Shown in pieces: positions 3,677-41,574 of a stretch of 64,000 bases of DNA (its first letter is position 1; each line of letters begins with the position of its first letter). A program made the position numbers and the translations under genes. The notes under the pieces are model-generated. The model worked only from the letters and a program-made list of their open reading frames with translations. It had not been told where the DNA came from and made no database searches. The stretch is from Candidatus Eiseniibacteriota bacterium (lineage in GTDB: Bacteria > Eisenbacteria > RBG-16-71-46 > CAZAMP01), in contig OZ245046.1 in the NCBI GenBank assembly GCA_965224245.1, forward strand, positions 3,584,001-3,648,000, in the 5' to 3' direction.

Positions 3677-5719
3677 GTGTTGTGGTCCCGGCACCCCCTT
3701 GGCCGGCGAGCCGCGCTCGCCTGCATCACTCTCGCGTCCGCAGGCGGCACCGTACTCGCCGACACCCTCCCCCGGCTGGAGCCGGAATCGCTCTCCCACC
3801 CGTTGGAGTCCAAGCGCGGACTGTCACGATCCCCGCAGGTCCTCTCCACGCCCTTCGACGTCACCGCCTACGTGCTGGACGTCACCCTCGACTACGAGGA
3901 CGCCGGCATCGCGGGCAGCGTGGCCATCTCGGGCGTGACCACCGTCGCCACCGACCAGCTGTACGTGAACGCGGGCGAGAACCTGACGATCGACGCCGTT
4001 TCGGGCGTCGGCACGGCCAGCACCGAGCGGACCGCCGACACGGTCACGATCCTGCTCGACGACCCGCTGGGCGCGGGCGAGCCGTTCACCATGACGATCG
4101 ACTACCACGGTACCGGCAACGTGTTCGACGACTTCGGCCTGATGTTCCAGGAGAGCTCGCTGTCCGGCCCCAGCATCTGGACGTTCGTGGAGCCCGACGG
4201 CGCCCGGCTCTGGTGGCCGTGCGTGGATCGCCCCAGCGACAAGGCGCCGGTGTCGATGGCGGTCACGGTCCGTGACGACTTCGTGGTCAGCGCCAACGGT
4301 CGCCGCACGTCGGTCACGGACCTGGGCGACGGCACTGCGCGATGGACGTTCGAGCACGACTCCCCGATCGCCACGTACCTCGTGGTGCTGAACGCGGCTC
4401 CGTTCACCGTGATCGAGGACACCTGGGAGCGACCGGGTGAACCTCCGATGCCGATCCGGCACTACGTGTACTCGGATCCGGATTACGTCGCGGCCGCCAC
4501 CGAGGACTTCTCGATCACGCCGCTCGCGCTCGACTGGTGCTCGAGCTGGTTCGGCGAGTATCCGTTCACCGCCGACGGCTACGGCCACACGATCTTCCCG
4601 TGGGGCGGCGCCATGGAGCACCAGACCAACACGAGCTACGGGGCGGGCCTGATCACGGGTACGCACGACTTCGACAACATCCTGTTTCACGAGCTCGCGC
4701 ACCAGTGGTTCGGCGACCACGTCACACCCGGCACCTGGCGGGACATCTGGCTCAACGAGGGGTTCGCGACCTACTCCGAGGCGTTGATGTTCGAGGGTGC
4801 CTACGGACCGCCCGTGCTGCCGATCGTCATGGACATCTTCCGCCAGGTGTACTTTCTCTTCCACGAGGGGCCCGACCACGCGATCTGGAGCCCACCGGAC
4901 GGTCATCTCTTCTGCGTGGCCGAGTACTACAAGGCGTCGTTCATCCTGCACATGCTCCGTCGCGAGCTGGGAGAGACCGATTTCTTCGCCGCGCTCCGTA
5001 TGCACGTCGCCGAGCACGCGGGCGGCAACGTCGTCACCCGTGACTTCCAGGACACGGTCGAACAGGTGGCCGGACGCGACCTCTCGTGGTTCTTCGATCA
5101 GTGGATCACGGGCGAGGGTCACCCGAGCTTCGCCTACAGCTGGGCCGACGTTCCGGCCACACCGGACGGCGGAGGCCCCGGTCTCACGTCGACGAATCCG
5201 CGCGGCGACTCGGGCGTCGAGCTGACCATCGAGCAGACGCAGCCGTGGGCACCCTTCGCGGTACCGATGGACGTCCGCGTGTTCACGGCCGCCGGTGAGG
5301 TGAACGAGACGATCTGGATCGACCAGCGGACGACGGTCGCGACGATCGCGACACCGGCACCGGCCGACTCGATCCGGCTGGATCCGGATGCATGGGTGTT
5401 CGGCACGTTCGCCGACGAGACGGCGGCCGCGGTGGTCGGCGTTCCCACGACGCCCGCGGAGCTCGGGACCCGCGTGAGCCCGAACCCGTTCCGGAGCGGA
5501 ATGGCGATCTCGGTACCGCTCCGCGATCTGGGCCGAAGCGTGGCCGTACGGATCTTCGACGCTCGCGGCCGCGAGGTCCGCTCGCTCGCCTCGGAGACCG
5601 GCGAGCTGCGCTGGGACGGGGCCGATGCCACCGGCCGGCCGGTTGCGCCCGGTACGTACTTCATGCACGCTCACGGTCCGAACGGCCAGGCGACGACGAA
5701 GCTCGTCAAGACCGACTAG
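3677..5719 (+). CDS. Secreted M1 family zinc aminopeptidase with C-terminal FlgD-Ig/T9SS-like domain
   Basis: GAMEH, HELAHQWFG..WLNEGFATY and YYKA motifs; signal peptide; C-terminal SPNPF..IFDARGREVR..WDG.D..G..V.PGTYF; AGGAGG RBS. Confidence 0.92.
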   Translation: MLWSRHPLGRRAALACITLASAGGTVLADTLPRLEPESLSHPLESKRGLSRSPQVLSTPFDVTAYVLDVTLDYEDAGIAGSVAISGVTTVATDQLYVNAGENLTIDAVSGVGTASTERTADTVTILLDDPLGAGEPFTMTIDYHGTGNVFDDFGLMFQESSLSGPSIWTFVEPDGARLWWPCVDRPSDKAPVSMAVTVRDDFVVSANGRRTSVTDLGDGTARWTFEHDSPIATYLVVLNAAPFTVIEDTWERPGEPPMPIRHYVYSDPDYVAAATEDFSITPLALDWCSSWFGEYPFTADGYGHTIFPWGGAMEHQTNTSYGAGLITGTHDFDNILFHELAHQWFGDHVTPGTWRDIWLNEGFATYSEALMFEGAYGPPVLPIVMDIFRQVYFLFHEGPDHAIWSPPDGHLFCVAEYYKASFILHMLRRELGETDFFAALRMHVAEHAGGNVVTRDFQDTVEQVAGRDLSWFFDQWITGEGHPSFAYSWADVPATPDGGGPGLTSTNPRGDSGVELTIEQTQPWAPFAVPMDVRVFTAAGEVNETIWIDQRTTVATIATPAPADSIRLDPDAWVFGTFADETAAAVVGVPTTPAELGTRVSPNPFRSGMAISVPLRDLGRSVAVRIFDARGREVRSLASETGELRWDGADATGRPVAPGTYFMHAHGPNGQATTKLVKTD

Positions 5720-28252: not shown

Positions 28253-29845
28253 TCATCTGACGACGACCATCCCGACCCTCGAGCGTGCGCCTCCGGCGTC
28301 GAGCGTGGCCCAGTAGACGCCACTCGCCCCGTGGGGCACGTCCCAGAGGATCGGTTCGCCCCCGGTCACCGCGAATCGGTCCACGCGACGGCCCGTCGCG
28401 TCGAAGACGCTCAACGTGCCGGCGCCCGTGGGTAGCGCATGGAACGTGAGCCGGGCCACGTCGCGAACCGGACTCGGCGAGACCCGGAGCGCGATACGCT
28501 CTCCGGACGCTCCGCCGGCCGGTGGGACGGCGACCGTCGCCGCATCGTAGCGGATCGTGCAGATGTCGAGGTTTCGGGGTACGCCGAGATCGCTGGCGCC
28601 GGCGACGATCACGTCACCGCCCCCGGTGAGCGCGATCGCCGTCGCCGAGTCGTCGCCGCCGGGACCCTCGTAGGTCGCCGACCAGACCTCCTGGCCGTCC
28701 GGATCCAGCCCGACGGTGAGAATGTCCTGGTCGCCCAGGAACCGGTAGCCGGTCAGATACCAGTTCCCGGCGGCGTCCACGGCCGACGCTTGCGGCCGCG
28801 CGTTTCCGCCCCCGCCGAAGTCGTAGGCCCACCGCTCGACCCCATTGGGGTCGTAGCTGACCACGAGGCCGCTCCAGCATCCGACGACCGTGTTCCCGGA
28901 CGCGTCGAGCGCAATCGTGCTCCCGACCTCGCCCGCGTGGGAGAAGCTCGACCACCGCTCGGTGCCGTCGGCGTCGTAGGAGACCGTGGTCAGGACATAC
29001 GTGCTGCCGGCACCGACGGTGTAGCCCGTCACGTAGGCGTTCCCGTCCGTGTCGACGGCCAGCGCGTGCGCGTGATCGTGGGAGTGGAGGCTGCCGTCCA
29101 CGAAGGCGACCCACTCCTGGTTGCCGGCGACGTCGTACTTGATCGTGACCCAGTCGTAGAAGCCCGAGGATCGGATGCTCTGACCCGTCACGTAGACGCT
29201 GCCGGCGGGCCCCAGCGCAACGTCGCCGGCGGAATCGGTCCCGTAGCCCCCGTGGTAGGTCGCACTCCAGGCGAGGGTTCCCTCGCGGTCGTAGGTCAGC
29301 GTGATCATGTCGGTCACGGTGCCGGGACTGTAGCTCCCGCCGACCACGTGAACGGTCCCGTCGGCGCCAACCGCCATGGCGGCCGCACCGTCTGTCCGGT
29401 CGGCGGGACCGTTCCAGCGTCGCGCCCAGAGCTCGATGCCATCCGGGTCGTACTTCACGGTGGCGACGTCGAGATCGGTCGTGGGGCCGGGGCTGGAGCC
29501 GCTCACGTACACGTTGTCGTCGGCGTCGACCGCGACGCCGACCGGCTCGTCGTTGAACGACAGCCCCGGACCGTTGTACCGGGCGACCCACACGAGCTCA
29601 CCGTTGCCGTCGAGCTTCAGCGTGGCGTACTCGTACGTGTAGTCGAATCCCGGGAGAAAGCCCAGGCTCTGGCCCGTGACGATGACGTGACCGCCGGAGT
29701 CGACGGTGACCGCGCGGCCGGTGTCGTGACCGCCGATGTTGTCGTAGAGCTCGACCCACTCCTCGATCACGTCGGCCGCCGCGGATACGACGAGGAGAGA
29801 GCCGAGGAGCCAGATCAGGATCGCGCGGCGAGTCCGGTGATGCAT
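28253..29845 (-). CDS. Secreted SBBP-type beta-propeller repeat protein with C-terminal FlgD-Ig/T9SS-like domain
   Basis: Signal peptide; about 7 repeats of (A/V)VD..G.VYVTG....D..T.KYD..G...W; C-terminal SPSP..VFDATGRRV..SGVYW. Confidence 0.87.
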   Translation of the reverse strand: MHHRTRRAILIWLLGSLLVVSAAADVIEEWVELYDNIGGHDTGRAVTVDSGGHVIVTGQSLGFLPGFDYTYEYATLKLDGNGELVWVARYNGPGLSFNDEPVGVAVDADDNVYVSGSSPGPTTDLDVATVKYDPDGIELWARRWNGPADRTDGAAAMAVGADGTVHVVGGSYSPGTVTDMITLTYDREGTLAWSATYHGGYGTDSAGDVALGPAGSVYVTGQSIRSSGFYDWVTIKYDVAGNQEWVAFVDGSLHSHDHAHALAVDTDGNAYVTGYTVGAGSTYVLTTVSYDADGTERWSSFSHAGEVGSTIALDASGNTVVGCWSGLVVSYDPNGVERWAYDFGGGGNARPQASAVDAAGNWYLTGYRFLGDQDILTVGLDPDGQEVWSATYEGPGGDDSATAIALTGGGDVIVAGASDLGVPRNLDICTIRYDAATVAVPPAGGASGERIALRVSPSPVRDVARLTFHALPTGAGTLSVFDATGRRVDRFAVTGGEPILWDVPHGASGVYWATLDAGGARSRVGMVVVR

Positions 29846-31519: not shown

Positions 31520-32857
31520 TCAGCCCTCGAGGAGCACGCGCCGGAAGAACTCGATCGTTCGAGGCTGCTCGAAGTAGTTCGTGTGATGCACGCCCTCGGT
31601 CTCGTGAAACGTGCAGATACGATCGACGTCCGAGATCCGGAGCTCCTTTGCCAGGTCGGTCATCGAGTCGGTATCGACGACGAGATCGTTCGGAGCCCGG
31701 AACAAGAGATCCGCCCCGAGGTCCGCGAGCCGCTCCTTCGGATCCTGGAACACGCGCCAGAACCGCCAGCCGATCGGCGGAGGCTCGAACTCGCCCCTCA
31801 CGACGTAGTACTCCGGCGGTCGCCTCCCCTGCTCGAGCCCTTCGCGAAGCCGTCGAATGCCCGGGTTGTCGCTCGTACGTCCCTGGCCGACCAGTCCCGG
31901 AATCGCCGAGATGGTCGCATCGAAGATGGGCGTCTTCGCCGCGACCTTCGTCACGGTCGTGATCACGCGCATGATGCCGGTGACGGCCGTCAAGATCGGC
32001 AACCCTCCCGAAAGGGCGGCGGCGCCCCGCTCGAGCCACGTGCCGAGGTTCGTCAGATAGTCCATCGACGCTCGGAGCTTCGGAGCGGACGCGAGGCTCG
32101 TTCCCGCGAGCGGTGAGCCCACGAGCACGAGCTTTCCGAGCCGCGACGGATCGTCGTTCAGCACCTCGGCCCACCAGCGCGTCACGAGCCCGCCCCGGCT
32201 GTGGCAGATCACATCGACCTCGGCCTCGGAGCCCTCGAAGGCTCTCTTCAGATCCACGGCGTTCAGGTATGGGTTCACCGAGACCGTCGGGTGATCGAAG
32301 CTCAGAACCTCGTCGTAGTGCGCGAAGGCCGCCTGGAGGAAGGCGCTGCCCCCATCGCTCGCATGGATGCCGTCGACGAGCGCCTCGGTCTTGCTGAACG
32401 TACCGTGGACGAAGAGCAAGATGCGTCCGTCGTTCGCCGCGCGGTCCACGGAAACGGACCCGCCCGGGGTCCATCGACGCATGCCCTGGTTCGGCGTCAG
32501 CCTCTTGTCCAGCTTCGTGAGGGCGTCGCCGATGCGGTTCTTCTCGAGCGACTCGAACTTGAGCTGCGCGACGACGCGTCCGCCGACGCGCTGCCCTCGG
32601 CGGCCCCGCCGGCGACCGGCGTGCTGCCGACCGCCGAATCCGCTTCGCCAACGGAGGACACCGTCCTCGTCCACGAGCGACATCGAGTCGACGTTGTCCG
32701 ATACCCGCCCCCCCGCGCGCCTCACGTGGTGGATCGGAGTCGGTTTGAAGTCGGGAATGGTCTCGTCGGCGGAGTAGATGTCCAGTCCGTCGATGGCCCT
32801 CTCGATGGTCTTCTCCACCTCGATCGGACTCAACCGATCCGCTTCACCGGTGGTCAT
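31520..32857 (-). CDS. Alpha/beta-hydrolase (lipase/esterase-like) with N-terminal extension
   Basis: LFVHGTFS, FDHPT, nucleophile elbow CHSRGG, VGSPLAGT, NDLVVD, HHTNYF; AAGGAGG RBS; overlaps the upstream gene by 14 nt. Confidence 0.85.
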   Translation of the reverse strand: MTTGEADRLSPIEVEKTIERAIDGLDIYSADETIPDFKPTPIHHVRRAGGRVSDNVDSMSLVDEDGVLRWRSGFGGRQHAGRRRGRRGQRVGGRVVAQLKFESLEKNRIGDALTKLDKRLTPNQGMRRWTPGGSVSVDRAANDGRILLFVHGTFSKTEALVDGIHASDGGSAFLQAAFAHYDEVLSFDHPTVSVNPYLNAVDLKRAFEGSEAEVDVICHSRGGLVTRWWAEVLNDDPSRLGKLVLVGSPLAGTSLASAPKLRASMDYLTNLGTWLERGAAALSGGLPILTAVTGIMRVITTVTKVAAKTPIFDATISAIPGLVGQGRTSDNPGIRRLREGLEQGRRPPEYYVVRGEFEPPPIGWRFWRVFQDPKERLADLGADLLFRAPNDLVVDTDSMTDLAKELRISDVDRICTFHETEGVHHTNYFEQPRTIEFFRRVLLEG

Positions 32858-35302
32858 CGAACGGCCCCTCCTTGATCGGAAGCGGCGTGACGGATGCGTC
32901 GCGCGCCGTACGGACATCGATCATCGAATGAAACTCCCCCGGACTGCGGAGGTTCTCGAACCCTTCGTCGATCGCCTCCCAGAAGCTGCCGTGCGTGGTC
33001 AGCCCGACCGCCTCGATCGGGAACAGCTTGTTCTCACGCATTCGGTGGAGCACGTCTCGATAGTCCGGCTTGCCGACGACCCACCGCCGGGTCCCTTGCG
33101 TCGTGCCCGTCGAGGTGCGGAGCTCTTCCTCGTCGACGGACTTCGTGTATGTCACCTCGAAGAACTCCTTGCGGTGCTCCTCCCAACGCCAGTACCCGGC
33201 AAACGCATGTCCTTCTAGGAGAAACACGACGGGATGGATGTCCACGTATTCGAGACAAGCCGCGATGAGCAGCGCGAGATCGATACACGTGCCTCGGCCG
33301 CCGGCCAGCACCTGCGTCGGTGTCCGGAGACGTTGTCCGTCGACCGAGTACGTCGGCGGAGGGTTGATGTAGCGAACCTGGAAGTGGTGAACGATCGCCG
33401 CCCACATCGCCTGTACCTGGAGATCGACGTTCTCCATCGTTCCGTCGAGATCGCTCACGTCCACGCTCTGATAGCCGTCGAAGCCCGCGGTCCGATCGTC
33501 CGTGAGCGTCATCAGGTGCCACTGGGCCTGGTCGATGACTCGCGCGACACCCGGATCGCCCGGAAGAACGAAAGACGGCAGCCAGAGCCGATCGGCGTCG
33601 GTGTCCTTCCACTCGTCGGCCGGAAGCAACGTCACGCGTTGCGTCTCTCGGCAAACCAAGCGATCCTCGTGCCGGATCTCGATGAAGAGCGACGTCCGGA
33701 TCGGCTCCTGCACGGTCCGAATGAGATCCGACGTCAGCGGGACGCTGATCTCGCTCGCAAGGTTCAGGGGCGTCGTGTCGGCCAGGTCCCACCGTCCGCG
33801 GTAGGGGAAGCTGTCGGCTCCGACGTGGAGGTTCACCTCGATCTCGAGTCCGCGAAGCATGCCCGACCGGTTCTTGTGGAGCTTGAAGCTGTCGAACAGA
33901 CACCCGAGGCGGTTGTGCATCAGCGAGTAGTTGATCTCCCGCCGCGCGCGGATGTCGAGCTTCAGCCAATCGTACGTGTCGTTCTTGGCAACCTCGATCG
34001 GCGCCGCACGCACCTGGGACTGTCGCGTCGCGTACGTCTGTGCCTCGCCGACCTCGGCCTGGAGCAGAGCGTGATCGGACCAGAGCACGATGCCCGTACC
34101 GACCATGCGCTGCGGCGCGCGCCGCAGCGAGCGGATCGCCTCGTCGAACGCGGGGAGCGCTTGCCAGTCGGCGTTTTGATAGTCGGAGTAGAAGCCCGAT
34201 AGGAGCCGCTCGGCGAGCTCGTCGTCGATCGTGTCCTGAAACCCGATCGCGTGGCGTGCCCCGTCCGCCACCACCATCGCACAGACCCGAGAGGCGGAGT
34301 TGTAGACGTTCGCGTAGACCAGCTCGGGCGGAGCACCGCCCGCGGTCAGCGCCAACGCGAGGTGCTCCGCATCGATCTGAGCGGGCTCGCCCTTCGACCC
34401 GGTCAGCACGACACCATCGCGGCTGGACCAGCCCGTCAGGAGCGATCCGTCGGGGTCCAGATCCTCGCGCTCGCGCTCGATCACCTGGGCGGCCTGATGC
34501 GCGTCCAGTCCGGCGATGTGGATCAGGGCGGGGCTCGTATCGGCCACGTGGGCTCGGAGCTGCTCCAGCGTCGGATTGATGAGCTCGTCCAGCTCGAGTC
34601 CGAGGCTGTCGCGTACGCGCTGCCGCTCCAGATCGAACGTGAAGTAGTCGTCGAGTCCGCCCGGACAGGCCTGCACGTACAGCGCCGATCGGGTCCGGCT
34701 GGCGCGAGACTTCCGGTCGGGGGACTCGTCCCGGGCCAGGTGGCGGATCACCGTGAGTTCCCCGGTCCGACCCAGGAGCTTGCTCGTGGTGCTCAGCACG
34801 TACTCCCACGGCGCGATCCGCGCTTCCCACGCCTCGGACTCGACCGAGTACGGCACGCAGACCTCGACGAACCGCGCCTGCCGAGCCAGGCGAGAAGGTC
34901 CTCCCCCCCGGACAGCGTTTCCACTTCCCTGTGGAGCTCCTCGTGCTGCCGCCGGCGATCGGCCTGCTCCGTCCAACGAATGCGTTTGGTCAAGCGGTAG
35001 CGCCAGCGCATCGCGAGGTCCTGCAACGTTCGATCGCTGGCGATCGTCGCCGTCTGGCCATCCGAGCTTCGAAAGACGATCTCGGTTCCGATCACCGATC
35101 GCGGAGGCACGGACCCGGTAGTCGCCTTGATAACAGGTGGCTTCGTCGCGGATGTTCGAGCCTTCGCCGCCTTCTTCTTTCCGGCGGAGCGCCTCGTCGT
35201 CTTCTTCTTCGACGGGGACTTCTTCGCGCGAGGCGTCGCCTCAGCGTCGCGGTTCGATTGCCGATCCTTGTGCCGGATCGCCTTCTTCTTCTTCTTTGGC
35301 AT
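32844..35302 (-). CDS. Multidomain protein: Lys-rich N-terminus, CHAT/caspase-like domain and transglutaminase/papain-like domain; frameshifted near 34875-34910 (about 819 aa if repaired)
   Basis: ORF 34793..35302 (MPKKKKK...) joins ORF 32844..34976 by a -1 shift. CHAT-like PWEY.L, LIHIAG, GVVL, AIGFQD.IDD..A...FY. TGase-like YINPP...GQRLRTP..VL...GTCIDLALL.AACLE, GHAFAGYW. Confidence 0.65.
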
Positions 35303-35464
35303 CGGGACCTCGAGAACGATCTTGGGACGGCGGCATCGCTCCGATCCAAAACATGCTCGCGATAGTGGCCCGCGGCACGAGTGGCGTCAATCTCCAAGCG
35401 TCGGCGTTTCGGCGCGCGGCGGCCACCGCACGATGAGAGTGCCATCCACTCGTGCCGCTCGACG

Positions 35465-36727
35465 TCATCTGAGAACGACGAACTGCCGCGACAGCGTCAC
35501 GGCACCGGCCTCGAGACGATAGAAGTACACACCGGGCGCCACGGCCCGCGCGTCCCACGTGACAGCGTGACGTCCCGCGGTCTTCTCGCCGTGAACGAGC
35601 GACGCGACCTTTCGTCCCCCCGTGTCGAACACGGTGACGTCGACGAACGTGTCCGTCGGAATCTGATAGGACACGACCGTCGGCCCCCGAGCCGGGTTCG
35701 GGTCCGCCGGTCCCAGGGTCGGCACGGCCGGCTCGAAGGGTGTCGACGTCGATGCGCGCGGGACGCCGTCCGAGCCCACGCAGTCGATCGCGATGAACGG
35801 TGTCCCGTCGTGGAGCAGTCCGGCCACGCCGAGCTCGTGCATGCCTTCCCACTCCAGAGCCCCGAGGATCAGATCGACCCGGCGCCGGCCGAAGTGCAGG
35901 ATCAGGTCCTCCCATCCGTCCGGCCCGTCGGTGATGCACTCGCATGGAACACCATCGTCGACCGGCGTGGCGAGGTCGGTCACGTTCGAGAACGTCGGCG
36001 GCAGCGTCAGCGAGAAGCTCTCGTGGTGCTCGGGCGTGTACAGCACCACCGTGGACGGATCGATCGTCCGGACGTCGAAGCCGTCGGTTCCCAGGATGCC
36101 GACCGGCACCGTGGATGACGCGAACGGCCCGTCGCCCACGAGGTTCGGGCAGACCTGCGGCTCGACGTCGAGAGGAACCTCGATCGTCGGCGCGCACGTG
36201 AACGCGAGGTCCGCGGTGCTCTCGACATCACCGATCGCGACCTCCACGTGCACCTCGGTGCCGGGAAAGCACGGCGGCTTCGAGCACTCGGCGGTCCACT
36301 CCGTCGTTCCGATGAAGTAACGAAAGCCCGGCAGGAAGTCGCCGATGAACATCCCGTCGACGTACCACGGCACACAGCACGTACACGCGAAGGAGTTGAT
36401 CTCGTAGATCTCCACGAGCGCCGGGTCGAACACGCAGCCGTCCCACCACCGACCGCGGGTTCCATAGCGAGCCGCTCCGTCGTAGCCGGCCTCGCAGCAG
36501 TCTTCGGTGATCCAGAGCTCGAAGGGCACTCCGCGCAAGTCGTCGCTGACCTCGAGCACCCATCGCACCTTCGCGGACGTGACGCCGACGGGCGCCACGC
36601 TCGAGATCGTTCAGGGATCATCGTCGTCGTCGAAATCGAGATAGATCCGATTGGCGTCCGCGATCGCCGCGCCGACGAGCAGCGCGAGCCCGAACAGCGC
36701 GAACACCCTCATCAATCGCTGAACCAT
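35465..36727 (-). CDS. Secreted Cys-rich protein with C-terminal FlgD-Ig/T9SS-like domain; in-frame TGA at codon 39 (selenocysteine candidate, or nonsense mutation/error)
   Basis: RBS GGAGGGAG and ATG 36727 give MVQRLMRVFALFGLALLVGAAIADANRIYLDFDDDDDP-TGA(36611-36613)-TISSVAPVG, in frame with ORF 35465..36598. C-terminal DPNP..VFDTGGRKV..WD..VAPGVYFYRL. Confidence 0.75.
36578..36599 (-). other. SECIS-like hairpin 11 nt downstream of the in-frame UGA
   Basis: mRNA CGUGGCGCC-CGUC-GGCGUCACG: 9-bp stem with one G.U pair, GU in the loop, and a possible imperfect lower stem. Confidence 0.35.
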
Positions 36728-37048: not shown

Positions 37049-38413
<1,365 letters not shown>

Positions 38414-38650: not shown

Positions 38651-38758
38651 GCACCGAGGCCGGATCCCGCACCGAGACCGGGTCCAGCACCGAGGCCGGG
38701 TCCAGCACCGAGGCCGGGTCCAGCACCGAGGCCGGGTCCAGCACCGAGGCCGGGCCCG
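38651..38758. repeat. Intergenic tandem repeat, 6 x 18 bp (GCACCGAGGCCGGGTCCA)
   Basis: Three identical units at 38687-38740 plus three variant units; no spacers. Confidence 0.92.
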
Positions 38759-38876: not shown

Positions 38877-41315
38877 TCAGGCGGGGCTCTCCAGGAACGC
38901 CAGCGCCTCGTCCTTCTTGCCGTCCATCATGATCCGGAGCGATCGCCCGCCCGACGCCGACGGGACGTGGATCACCCGCACGATGTCGGTCAGGTCGCTC
39001 GCCGACGGCACGAGCGACGTGAGCCGGTTCTCGGAGTCCCGGAGGAACGCCTCGTTGAACACGACCTCGGCGCGGTCGGGATAGAGCGGCAGGTGCTGGA
39101 TCCCCGCCTCGACGAGGTCCTGGAAGAAGTGCGTTCCGAACGACACGTCGGGCTCGTATCCCTCGCGCGCGCGTGCGATCTCGATCAACAGGAGCGTGTG
39201 GTTGATGTCGGCGTAGGTGACGCGGACGCCCAGGCGGTGATCCGAGCTCCCCCATCGGCCGGGGCCCATCAGGATGTACCGCTTGCCCTCCAGTGCCGCA
39301 TTCAGATGCCCCACCGCCGCCGTCACCGTGTGACAGTCGGCGGCCGACGCCAGCGCCGTGTAGCGCACCGGGTCCACGTAGACGATGTACTCCACCTGGG
39401 CGAGGTCGGCGGTGGCCACGTCGCTCCGGGCCGAGAAGATCTGATCGGTCTCGGGAACGTTGGCCGGGATCTGCACGTCGGACATCTCGATCCGCGAGGA
39501 GAGCGGCCGGCACTGGAGCACGTAGAAGTCCTGGCCGTCGAACGCGAACTCCACGTCCACCGGGCGATCGTACGCCCTGGCGATGGACTCGAGCATCCAC
39601 CGGAGACGCGGCACGAACTCCGAGCGTGCCAGGAGGTTGTCGAACGTGACGATCAGGTTCTCCGGCGACTCGGTGATCCGCTTGGTCACCGGCGGAATGA
39701 GGTCGCCGTCGCGGTGGATGGACACGATGTCGTGCAGCAACGGGTACGGACCCTCGGCGAGGATTCGATCCAGCGACACGCACCGGAACTCGTTCCGCTT
39801 CAGGTCGATCACGTCGAGGTAGCGCTGCGAGTATCGGCAGGCGTCCTGGACGTTGCCCTCGGGTCGCAGCGTGGGCATGCCCAGCGCGATCATCCGGGGA
39901 TAGTCGCCGCCAACGCGATCCACCGCGCGCGACCCGAGACCCATCACCAGCCGCACGAGACCGTCTTCCTTCCGGATGCGCGGGTTCCACCGATACTCGT
40001 TGTGTGAGAACGCGACGCCCGCCCACGCGGGAAAGAAGAACCGGCCGTGCCGCTTCCCGACGACCTTCTGGATGATCACGCCCATCAGCTCGTCGTAGTC
40101 GATCAGGTTCTTGGCCCGCCGGTAGGCGATCGGATCGGGACCCAGCGTGCTGGCGAACACCTCGGCGATGGCCCCGAGAAGCTGGTGCAGCCGGTCCTCG
40201 AGATCACCCTGGTTGCCCAGGAAGATGCTGGCGTACTTGCCCGAGAACGCGTAGTTGAAGTTGTCCTCGAGCAGGCTCGACGACCGCACGATCAACGGAT
40301 GCGGCCCGATGCGCTCCAGGAACGCGCGGATCTGCTTGACCACGTCCTCGGGGAACTCGGCGTTCTTGAACACCTCGCGCACGGCGCCGAACTCGGACCG
40401 GACCTGATCGATGTCCTTGTACTTCTGGTCGGTGTACTCGATCAGGTCGTTCACGCGGAGGAAGCGCTGGAAGACGTCGGTGCGCACGAACAGCGACTCG
40501 GGCGTCCTGAACGGCCACTCCTCGTGCCCGGCGGCCGCGGCGTCGCGCAGGATCGCGGCCGCGAGCACCATGCCTGCGGCCTTCCCGCCCACGCGACCCG
40601 ACCCGCCCTCGGTGCCCACCGAGTTGGTCAGGATGCGGTTCGCGTCACGTACGGTCATGTGGTGCTTGGCCACGCCGAGGAAGTCGAGCTGCTCGGAGAT
40701 CACGCGCCGCAGCAACGTGACCCGCAGGCCGAACGCCTCGGCCTTGGGGAGTCGCACCCACCGGCCCGGCAGCTCGCAGTACTCGGCCACCTTCTCGGCC
40801 AGCTCGTTCACCGGCAGCCCGGCGTCGTTCGCGAACAGGTTGAGGTTCTCGGCCTCGCGTCGCTTCCGGGTCAGGAGAACGACCGCGTCCAGCTCGCCGG
40901 CGGTGAAGGAGTCGGCCGCGTACTGCGTGACGAGCCGGTCGATCTCGCGGCGCTCGTCGGCGTTCCAGCGATGGGCCATGCCGCGGTTGATTCCGGGATG
41001 ATCGCCGGTCTCCCCGTCGGGTGCGTCCCCGGCGTCGTCCTCCTCGTCGTCGTCCTCGAGCCCATCGTCGGGTGACGGGGCCTCGCCCGACAGGGCCTCG
41101 CGCGCCTCGTCGTAGATCGCGTCGACGTCCTTGACGCCCCGGTTGTGGAGCATCAGCAGGAGATGTCGGATGATCTTCGAGCGGAGCTCGGGGAAATAGG
41201 CGAGATACCCCTCGATCAGGTCACGGCGGTCGGGCGGCGTGTCCGATGCGGTCACGGTGGGCCCGTCGGGCCGTCCCCCCGGGTCGATCGGGTGGACGTC
41301 TGTCGGCTTTTCCAA
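38877..41315 (-). CDS. PEP/pyruvate-binding-domain protein (PPDK/PEP-synthase N-terminal ATP-grasp) lacking the PEP-binding barrel; start uncertain
   Basis: GRVGGKAAGM, LIVRSSSLLED..AFSGKY.S, MGVIIQ.VVG, MGLGSRAV, DVEFA, VLQCRP; C-terminal GPGRWGSSD..LGV and SFGTHFFQDLVE. Confidence 0.85.
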   Translation of the reverse strand: MEKPTDVHPIDPGGRPDGPTVTASDTPPDRRDLIEGYLAYFPELRSKIIRHLLLMLHNRGVKDVDAIYDEAREALSGEAPSPDDGLEDDDEEDDAGDAPDGETGDHPGINRGMAHRWNADERREIDRLVTQYAADSFTAGELDAVVLLTRKRREAENLNLFANDAGLPVNELAEKVAEYCELPGRWVRLPKAEAFGLRVTLLRRVISEQLDFLGVAKHHMTVRDANRILTNSVGTEGGSGRVGGKAAGMVLAAAILRDAAAAGHEEWPFRTPESLFVRTDVFQRFLRVNDLIEYTDQKYKDIDQVRSEFGAVREVFKNAEFPEDVVKQIRAFLERIGPHPLIVRSSSLLEDNFNYAFSGKYASIFLGNQGDLEDRLHQLLGAIAEVFASTLGPDPIAYRRAKNLIDYDELMGVIIQKVVGKRHGRFFFPAWAGVAFSHNEYRWNPRIRKEDGLVRLVMGLGSRAVDRVGGDYPRMIALGMPTLRPEGNVQDACRYSQRYLDVIDLKRNEFRCVSLDRILAEGPYPLLHDIVSIHRDGDLIPPVTKRITESPENLIVTFDNLLARSEFVPRLRWMLESIARAYDRPVDVEFAFDGQDFYVLQCRPLSSRIEMSDVQIPANVPETDQIFSARSDVATADLAQVEYIVYVDPVRYTALASAADCHTVTAAVGHLNAALEGKRYILMGPGRWGSSDHRLGVRVTYADINHTLLLIEIARAREGYEPDVSFGTHFFQDLVEAGIQHLPLYPDRAEVVFNEAFLRDSENRLTSLVPSASDLTDIVRVIHVPSASGGRSLRIMMDGKKDEALAFLESPA

Positions 41316-41574
41316 GGGCGCCCCCTGCCCCGGCGGGTGTTGCGAAACGACCGCGAAGAGAATACCACAGGGCGTTCCGGATTCGATCTCACTGCCCGCG
41401 GAGGTCCTGGTGTCCCGACCCGGAAGTCGTGCTACCTTCTCGCCGACGCTCGCGGCTCCCGGCCGCGCTGCGACTCCTCGACGGATCTTCGGATACGCCT
41501 GCGTCGCCCCGTCGTGCCGGGAGCCACGATCACTCGGCGAGAAGGCGACATGACCTCCGGATCGGAACACTAGG

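Follow-up and report, generated by a model that had tools for sequence, protein, structure and literature searches.

Bacterial conflict systems that couple a protease to a second, latent enzyme have been described in several forms, and two of these are close to the locus studied here. According to the accessible part of Kaur et al. (2020; PMC7159879), NTPase conflict systems always place an alpha/beta-hydrolase beside their caspase domains, and transglutaminase-like thiol peptidases rarely fill the peptidase slot of conflict systems. In the available text of Evans et al. (2025 preprint; PMC12642450), LcCaspase of Lysobacter cuts LcHydrolase after Arg73 and Arg117, each of which is followed by Gly, and the outer LcHydrolase fragments together kill E. 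coli. Here we analyse a pair of genes on the minus strand (31520-35302) of a 64,000-nucleotide stretch of contig OZ245046.1 from a Candidatus Eiseniibacteriota bacterium; this whole stretch is called the window. Gene 1 encodes a basic tail, a CHAT (caspase-fold) domain that has lost its catalytic residues, an immunoglobulin-like (Ig-like) domain and a transglutaminase-like domain, and gene 2 encodes a lipase-like alpha/beta-hydrolase of the DUF7379 family. We put the probability at about one half that they form a two-gene protease-effector-type module, kin to the caspase/alpha-beta-hydrolase pairs but rebuilt, in which the transglutaminase-like domain of gene 1 activates the latent lipase encoded by gene 2.

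Comparison with the known systems is informative. As in the LcCaspase/LcHydrolase pair (as far as the available text of PMC12642450 describes it), a gene with a caspase fold lies beside a gene for a lipase-like alpha/beta-hydrolase and two Arg-containing sites lie about 40 residues apart, N-terminal to the hydrolase core; by analogy, a zymogen unleashed by cutting would be the expected logic here as well. The likeness of gene 2 to LcHydrolase is one of gene order, hydrolase type and twin Arg sites, and gene 2 is larger, at 445 amino acids (aa) versus the roughly 300 aa inferred for LcHydrolase from the fragment masses in the accessible part of that paper. Unlike LcCaspase, gene 1 has lost the catalytic dyad throughout its family and has a transglutaminase-like domain appended, and the pair comes without the STAND or WD40 sensor of the Lysobacter system as described there. 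The MoxR-vWA/VMAP and GAP1 conflict systems, in the available part of PMC7159879, likewise tie a caspase superfamily domain to an alpha/beta-hydrolase neighbour, but they are embedded in NTPase-centred ternary systems, whereas the present pair stands alone with no conserved third gene. It thus has the adjacent, co-oriented and conserved gene pair of a caspase/CHAT plus alpha/beta-hydrolase module and lacks the catalytic His-Cys dyad, and it is most likely a variant of the known protease-effector modules of this type in which the caspase has turned into a pseudoenzyme.

An earlier sequence-only reading had suggested that the pair may be an undescribed defence system. The class "caspase plus alpha/beta-hydrolase" is already described in both of these papers, and only the dead-CHAT/transglutaminase form appears to be undescribed. 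We found no description of the dead-CHAT/transglutaminase-like/hydrolase architecture in the literature searched or in the accessible parts of PMC12642450 and PMC7159879, and the literature search returned no paper on DUF7379 and none on a pseudocaspase or inactive CHAT with a transglutaminase-like protease-effector. The words "transglutaminase", "CHAT" and "DUF" do not occur in the available text of PMC12642450, whose supplements may list related architectures.

Gene 1 carries a caspase fold without catalytic residues

An alignment of 114 homologues was used for the gene 1 family profile and for its AlphaFold2 (AF2) model, and residue numbers are those of the 710-aa open reading frame (ORF; Table 1). 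The model (predicted local distance difference test score, pLDDT, 89.5; predicted template modelling score, pTM, 0.83) has three structured domains. The first of these matches the SAVED-CHAT protease 8tl0_A with Z 17.4 over 183 aligned residues (root-mean-square deviation, rmsd, 2.6), and the family profile matches the same protein by sequence at E 8.9e-7. Other structural matches are gingipain R (4ief_B, Z 14.2), the DdvA CHAT domain (Z 13.5), Csx29 (Z 12.6), separase (Z about 11) and the protease-like domain of c-FLIP (3h13_A, Z 8.4). Pfam CHAT (PF12770) scores gene 1 at E 5.7e-5 and 23.1 bits, just under its gathering cut-off of 24, and a precomputed PF12770 mark is present on some of the homologues. 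The CHAT/caspase-like domain proposed from the sequence alone is thus borne out.

Both CHAT catalytic residues are replaced in 114/114 homologues. When gene 1 is aligned to 8tl0_A, the position of the catalytic His is occupied by Leu157, a column that holds Phe in 58, Ile in 27, Val in 20, Leu in 4 and Cys in 4 homologues, and that of the catalytic Cys by Tyr225 (Tyr in 64, Trp in 16, Gln in 13, His in 11 and Phe in 7). The lost Cys motif, read earlier as ANVYNS in place of LxAC, is therefore real; the His that had been taken as retained (LIHIAG) is H153, the upstream, non-catalytic His of the CHAT strand. SAVED-CHAT 8tl0, Csx29 TPR-CHAT, separase and gingipain share the fold of gene 1 but are active His-Cys proteases, where gene 1 has Leu and Tyr. 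Nowhere in the domain is there a column with a conserved Cys among the 114 homologues (52/114 at best). A non-canonical CHAT active site was considered and rejected, as H160 is present in only 87/114 homologues and S227 is Thr in 6.

The rest of the domain is well conserved, with H153 in 114/114, R230 in 113/114, D158 in 112/114 and S227 in 108/114 homologues (Thr in the other 6), and it also contains a conserved WEARxxPWE segment. Loss of the dyad together with such strong conservation indicates a pseudo-enzyme under selection, and because both catalytic residues are gone the CHAT domain cannot itself be the protease.

Ahead of the structured part lies the Lys-rich N-terminus that had been pointed out earlier: gene 1 begins MPKKKKK (35302), and its first 75 residues are 33% Lys plus Arg. 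Homologues have a similar basic tail before the structured part, with a median length of 53.5 aa and 23% Lys plus Arg (n=90), and the proportion exceeds 20% in 60/90.

A transglutaminase-like domain shared with Prometheus ProA

The beta-rich linker recognised earlier behind the CHAT part is an Ig-like beta-sandwich, whose matches (beta-sandwich domains of protein 4.2, 7tvz_E, and of GH2 enzymes, Z about 8.4) have middling scores. It is followed by a domain that has a papain-like core and Cys, His and acid in the order that is canonical for the superfamily of transglutaminase-like thiol peptidases. C564 and H590 are present in 114/114 homologues and E655 in 113/114, so the Cys/His/acid domain seen in the raw sequence stands. 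Its structural matches include the putative protease 3kd4_B (Z 9.0, 132 residues aligned, rmsd 2.9) and PNGase (2f4o, Z 7.9), and the Pfam match to DUF553 reaches just E 0.047. Thus the two folds predicted for gene 1, caspase-like and papain/transglutaminase-like, were both recovered by structural matching.

Positions 1-246 of the 1903 in the NCBIfam model antiphage_ProA (NF058533) match gene 1 residues 349-606 at E 2.9e-54, and this profile match makes the unit of Ig-like and transglutaminase-like domains a homologue of the N-terminus of ProA of the Prometheus system. The likeness to DUF4011/DUF3320 helicases that had been proposed for this domain proved well founded, since a ProA-like protein of the same phylum has a gene 1-type unit directly before DUF4011 and an AAA_11 helicase. 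As in gene 1, the Cys-His-acid triad is kept, with Asp as the third residue in that protein, and it is also kept in 10/11 other relatives from the phylum. Gene 1 is not a full-length ProA, its score being 184 bits versus an equivalog cut-off of 1500 bits; ProA, in the available part of PMC13700489, combines DUF4011, a DNA2/Upf1-like helicase and DUF3320 in one chain of about 1900 aa, and gene 1 contains none of the three.

These associations bear on an explanation that we regard as improbable, namely that coupling between the two genes is non-proteolytic: the transglutaminase-like domain would deamidate, cross-link or otherwise modify the hydrolase or a third target, or would purely sense, as perhaps in ProA, and the hydrolase would be activated allosterically. 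This would suit a domain that heads the ProA helicases and accompanies FHA and Clp_N domains, where there is no obvious protease substrate, and a superfamily that includes amidases such as PNGase. It fits less well with the Arg clusters in the exposed loop of gene 2 (below), which agree with the published logic of cleavage, and with a hydrolase clade that is otherwise linked to active proteases.

We also note two further settings of the domain. At four loci of the same phylum (L008, L012, L011 and L014) a ProA-type transglutaminase-like domain lies behind FHA domains and before Clp_N domains, which suggests that it is the basis of a broader family of signalling or quality-control proteins. In the window's own genome, locus L002 (G000:C1:4646961-4650542) contains in ORF 1243-2760 a distant 506-aa paralogue of the domain, with 27% identity over residues 414-602, Cys and His kept, and no Pfam match.

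Gene 2 encodes a lipase-like hydrolase with a conserved N-terminal domain

Gene 2 belongs to DUF7379 (PF24096; E 4.7e-37, 128.2 bits versus a gathering cut-off of 33), and its conservation was read from an alignment of 114 homologues; its AF2 model has pLDDT 89.6 and pTM 0.91. Residues 122-445 form a lipase-type alpha/beta-hydrolase; among structural matches restricted to this part, the phospholipase PlaB (6zth_A) ranks first (Z 17.2), ahead of a Streptomyces lipase (Z 17.0), a Bacillus lipase in its propeptide form (Z 16.8) and the type VI secretion system (T6SS) lipase Tle4 (Z 13.9). Ser220 of the HSRGG nucleophile motif and its presumed partners Asp391 and His425 are invariant. The lipase-like assignment from the CHSRGG motif is thereby upheld, and the hydrophobic helical insert after the nucleophile that came with it consists, in the model, of two long helices, 258-278 and 285-305, that resemble a lipase lid.

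The N-terminal extension with an Arg/Gly linker, likewise noticed from the sequence, is a conserved domain of about 120 aa outside the hydrolase core. It contains two Arg-rich sites. The first is R46-R47, followed by Ala and Gly, with R46 in 111/114 and R47 in 110/114 homologues. The second, about 40 residues further on, is the exposed loop 73-93, where the model is least confident within its N-terminal half (10-residue blocks of pLDDT 69 and 61); it varies in length and carries an Arg-rich run that is often GRRxRRG in the first 60 alignment rows. By analogy, this loop would be of the kind that is cut by caspase-like proteases in the published alpha/beta-hydrolase zymogen.

The pair is conserved, widespread and probably mobile

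When the gene 2 alignment was run against one genome per species (185,579 species genomes) it found 228 relatives, and the gene 1 alignment found at least 448 in metagenomes; the 80 best loci of each scan were examined. A gene 1 homologue lies directly upstream and co-oriented at 71/80 genome loci, the rest being one convergent pair, three loci cut by contig ends and five with room for gene 1 yet without it. Among the metagenome loci the hydrolase is directly downstream of gene 1 in 70/80; eight others have less than 500 nt of room and two have no hydrolase. The conservation of the pair elsewhere, on which the sequence-only reading depended, is thus clear. No third gene is common to more than 7 of the 80 genome loci. 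The two proteins have correlated pairwise distances (r = 0.835 over 54 pairs, a value reached in 0/999 permutations), to which shared ancestry contributes.

The pair occurs in Gammaproteobacteria, Bradyrhizobium, Burkholderiaceae, Acidobacteriota, Planctomycetota, Gemmatimonadota, Myxococcota, Verrucomicrobiota and Eisenbacteria. In the window's own phylum, full-length gene 1 homologues are found in 3/206 genomes, including that of the window, and the GC content of the module is 65.7% against 69.6% for the window, lower than in 98% of equally long windows. Such rarity within the phylum together with presence in many phyla and a deviant GC content points to a horizontally mobile module. The family comprises 16 Atlas clusters with at least 50 members, and the source records listed give it generic names only. 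At two Planctomycetota loci (L085, 258-6695, and L082, 53-4105) open frames of great length, as much as 2146 aa from stop to stop, lead into the gene 1 homologue; the long L085 frame has no Pfam match, and these frames may be high-GC artefacts or giant N-terminal extensions.

A few loci depart from the usual arrangement. At L024 an 813-aa protein containing a canonical CHAT domain is encoded behind a hydrolase of the gene 2 clade, and at L038 and L070 hydrolase and CHAT domain share a single open frame; the CHAT domains of all three keep HFVGHG/CHG and LNACEVG, and the hydrolases have RRRG-type motifs at both sites. An order-level DUF7379 scan returned generic PGAP1-like lipases and CHAT fusions, including two more DUF7379-CHAT fusions (L184 and L185) from another order. 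The hydrolases of these five loci belong to the same clade as gene 2, at 39-48% identity and with the RRRG Arg motifs, but their CHAT partners differ from gene 1 in keeping HG and AC and in having no transglutaminase-like domain. Finally, at L139 an M36-like zinc peptidase without a signal peptide occupies the slot after gene 1. Thus hydrolases of this clade are clients of CHAT proteases, and gene 1 can be paired with a different effector.

Active CHAT partners of the same hydrolases raise the question whether gene 1 might be a decoy or regulator, a c-FLIP-like pseudo-protease that would bind the hydrolase's Arg loops but leave them uncut. It would either protect the hydrolase from an active CHAT protease of another locus or hand the hydrolase over to that protease, while the transglutaminase-like domain would sense or modify something else. 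This is an explanation we hold to be rather unlikely. It agrees with a CHAT fold whose dyad is lost while H153, D158, S227 and R230 remain invariant or nearly so, with the match to c-FLIP itself, and with same-clade hydrolases that are cut-site-compatible partners of active CHAT domains; the window's genome moreover encodes 15 strong canonical CHAT proteins. However, the pair moves alone across phyla with no conserved third gene, so that a protease acting in trans would be needed in every recipient, and since gene 1 itself has an invariant Cys-His-Glu, catalysis in cis is favoured. That gene 2 is intact here beside a broken gene 1 (below) speaks weakly against gene 1 as a needed inhibitor.

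A model for activation of gene 2 by gene 1

In the reading that we prefer, activation of the lipase by the transglutaminase-like domain, the N-terminal domain of gene 2 would hold the lipase latent. The dead CHAT fold would serve as a docking or regulatory domain for the hydrolase, and the transglutaminase-like domain would supply the chemistry, most plausibly by thiol-peptidase cleavage at the Arg sites or else by another modification. The Lys/Arg-rich tail would bind a polyanion, either nucleic acid or membrane, and its basic character suggests that a polyanion is the trigger. Cleavage would then free an active membrane-lipid hydrolase and the cell would be killed or arrested.

A stricter version of this model, which is possible but which we would not bet on, is that an Arg-directed thiol protease, the ProA-type domain, has replaced a fossilised caspase, with the dead CHAT fold as substrate receptor and the polybasic tail tying activation to a nucleic-acid or membrane cue. 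If this were true, the pair would represent a new class of protease-gated suicide effector and would give a function to the N-terminal domain of ProA.

The earlier proposal that gene 1 acts on gene 2 to release an effector survives in part. The pair is conserved, gene 2 is lipase-like with an exposed Arg loop, and its clade is tied to intact CHAT proteins; the CHAT domain as the acting protease has to be given up. When a complex was predicted from gene 1 residues 34-330, gene 1 residues 455-700 and the whole of gene 2, a control came close in score, and the prediction speaks neither for nor against binding.

The gating of effectors by proteases is emerging as a central principle of bacterial immunity, and this family would show how a module of this kind outlives its caspase active site by taking on a different thiol-enzyme domain. 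The shared domain also connects the caspase/hydrolase modules with Prometheus, which are otherwise separate systems.

A frameshift interrupts gene 1 in this genome

Gene 1 is not a single open gene in this genome. Its first 141 codons (34880-35302) and the remainder (32844-34880) are in different frames, and base 34880 is shared by Gly141 of the N-terminal piece and Gln33 of the main ORF, which leaves the sequence one base short of the intact homologues. The 169-aa ORF aligns to P0005, an intact protein of 820 aa that is 72% identical and the closest homologue of gene 1, up to its own residue 141 (...DLLAWLG; P0005 residue 145), and the alignment of the 710-aa ORF begins at its own residue 33 (QARFVEV...), which is P0005 residue 146. 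Full-length homologues are typically 750-820 aa long with the Lys/Arg-rich start in frame, and both P0005 and the homologues in genomes G095 and G012 are encoded in a single frame. P0005 and P0125, an intact pair, appear to share a contig. As annotated in the genome, gene 1 is reduced to 670 aa, with its start within the first strand of the caspase fold.

Two other accounts of this frameshift were rejected. Programmed frameshifting is contradicted by the closest homologues, which are in one frame. A slip of one assembly does not agree with contigs that were each built from one of four public runs (covering two samples of a single study): those of runs X1, X2 and X3 cover 34300-35400 and that of X4 covers 34300-34908, all with 0 differences, though these runs are possibly the assembly's own source.

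Since gene 1 is interrupted by this 1-nt frameshift, the module is probably inactive or decaying here, as judged from the sequence, while gene 2 has remained intact. The copy in G095 (locus L003; G095:C14, 3518-4841) has an intact gene 1 of 805 aa and a hydrolase whose N-terminal part (frame of 3518..) and core (frame of 3915-4841) are out of frame with each other. Thus 2/3 of the phylum copies are frameshifted, each in a different gene.

Genomic context and the question of defence

Several observations weigh against the model. The copy at hand has a broken gene 1, so the locus may do nothing. The pair contains no recognised NTPase or other sensor. Other members of the transglutaminase-like superfamily are amidases, deamidases or inactive, and peptidase activity of the gene 1 domain, cleavage of gene 2 and toxicity are predictions by analogy. 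A search of PADLOC-DB 2.0 at E up to 1 matched neither of the main proteins to any family, and the support that PADLOC might have lent to a defence system did not materialise. Of the 268 flanking ORFs at the genome loci, 118 were scanned with Pfam, and by simple count these are mostly metabolic or housekeeping; the genes next to the module in the window encode an SBBP-repeat protein, a CMD-histidine kinase, glutamate dehydrogenase and a PPDK-like enzyme. Conflict-like genes among the scanned flanks are few (AAA_21/AAA_15, an IS200 transposase, a Tle1-like lipase, a patatin, a trypsin-like peptidase and a TPR-CHAT protein). A pattern scan found no gene 1 relatives on viral contigs. Lastly, the 15 canonical CHAT proteins encoded in the genome (G000:C1) could act in trans. 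A defence role for the pair is therefore unproven.

The housekeeping flanks, the blank PADLOC result and the lack of relatives on viral contigs would suit a module outside conflict altogether, in which a protease-like regulator controls lipid or membrane turnover as part of housekeeping or a stress response. We consider this to have a low probability. A housekeeping function does not sit well with the rare and patchy spread of the pair (3/206 genomes of the phylum; 228 relatives in 185,579 species genomes), its deviant GC, an effector slot that can be swapped (L139), its kinship to ProA and to the CHAT-hydrolase modules, or frameshifts in 2/3 of the phylum copies.

Organization of the locus

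The minus strand from 31520 to 35302 contains three long reading frames (Table 1), which make up the two overlapping, co-oriented genes that were originally described. Gene 2 is best taken to start at the ATG at 32857, and the 465-aa reading from 32917 is less likely: the 445-aa product is the protein recorded for the genome, homologues are 435-470 aa long, and the Shine-Dalgarno sequence AAGGAGG precedes this ATG. The ATG lies inside the final codons of gene 1, whose TGA is at 32844-32846, giving an overlap of 14 nt, and on the basis of this arrangement the two genes are translationally coupled.

Table 1. Features of the two-gene module in window coordinates (gene 1 residues numbered in the 710-aa ORF unless stated)
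Feature	Position	Strand	Basis or remark
465-aa ORF	31520-32917	minus	gene 2, longer reading
710-aa ORF	32844-34976	minus	gene 1, main part
169-aa Lys-rich ORF	34793-35302	minus	gene 1, N-terminal piece; overlap with the 710-aa ORF, frames different
Gene 2, DUF7379 lipase-like alpha/beta-hydrolase, 445 aa, protein P0124	31520..32857	minus	Pfam, lengths, Shine-Dalgarno, AF2
Gene 2 N-terminal domain, residues 1-121, putative prodomain	32495..32857	minus	outside hydrolase core; conserved across 114 homologues
Arg cluster 1 of gene 2, R46 R47 A G	32711..32722	minus	conserved Arg pair
Exposed Arg/Gly loop of gene 2, residues 73-93, GFGGRQHAGRRRGRRGQRVGG, putative cleavage loop	32579..32641	minus	low pLDDT and Arg-rich run
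Gene 2 nucleophile motif HSRGG, Ser220	32189..32203	minus	invariant, 114 homologues
Gene 2 Asp391, presumed triad partner	31685-31687	minus	invariant, 114 homologues
Gene 2 His425, presumed triad partner	31583-31585	minus	invariant, 114 homologues
Gene 1 N-terminal piece, residues 1-141 of the 169-aa ORF	34880..35302	minus	Lys/Arg-rich disordered tail and conserved W/R-rich segment; aligns to P0005 residues 30-145
Gene 1 frameshift site	34878..34882	minus	Gly141 of N-terminal piece (34880-34882) and Gln33 of main ORF (34878-34880) share base 34880
Gene 1 pseudo-CHAT (caspase-fold) domain, residues 34-310	34047..34877	minus	profile and structural matches
Gene 1 Leu157, at catalytic His position	34506-34508	minus	alignment to 8tl0_A
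Gene 1 Tyr225, at catalytic Cys position	34302-34304	minus	alignment to 8tl0_A
Gene 1 Ig-like beta-sandwich domain, residues 336-451	33624..33971	minus	structural matches, Z 8.0-8.5
Gene 1 transglutaminase-like domain, residues 457-697	32886..33608	minus	structural matches and conserved triad
Gene 1 Cys564	33285-33287	minus	GTC564xD, 114/114 homologues
Gene 1 His590	33207-33209	minus	GH590AF, 114/114 homologues
Gene 1 Glu655	33012-33014	minus	PxE655, Glu in 113/114 homologues

Some features of the surroundings may be added. The canonical CHAT proteins of this genome form an unusually rich set, with lengths of about 950-1200 aa and E from 1e-27 to 1e-61. The module is flanked on the minus strand by two secreted-looking proteins (28253-29845 and 35465-36598), the first with SBBP beta-propeller repeats, and both end in similar C-terminal segments that, by eye only, resemble a sorting domain. 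Between the genes for glutamate dehydrogenase (37049-38410) and for the PPDK-like enzyme (38877-41570) lies an 18-bp tandem repeat (38651-38754; 5.8 copies, 95% matches).

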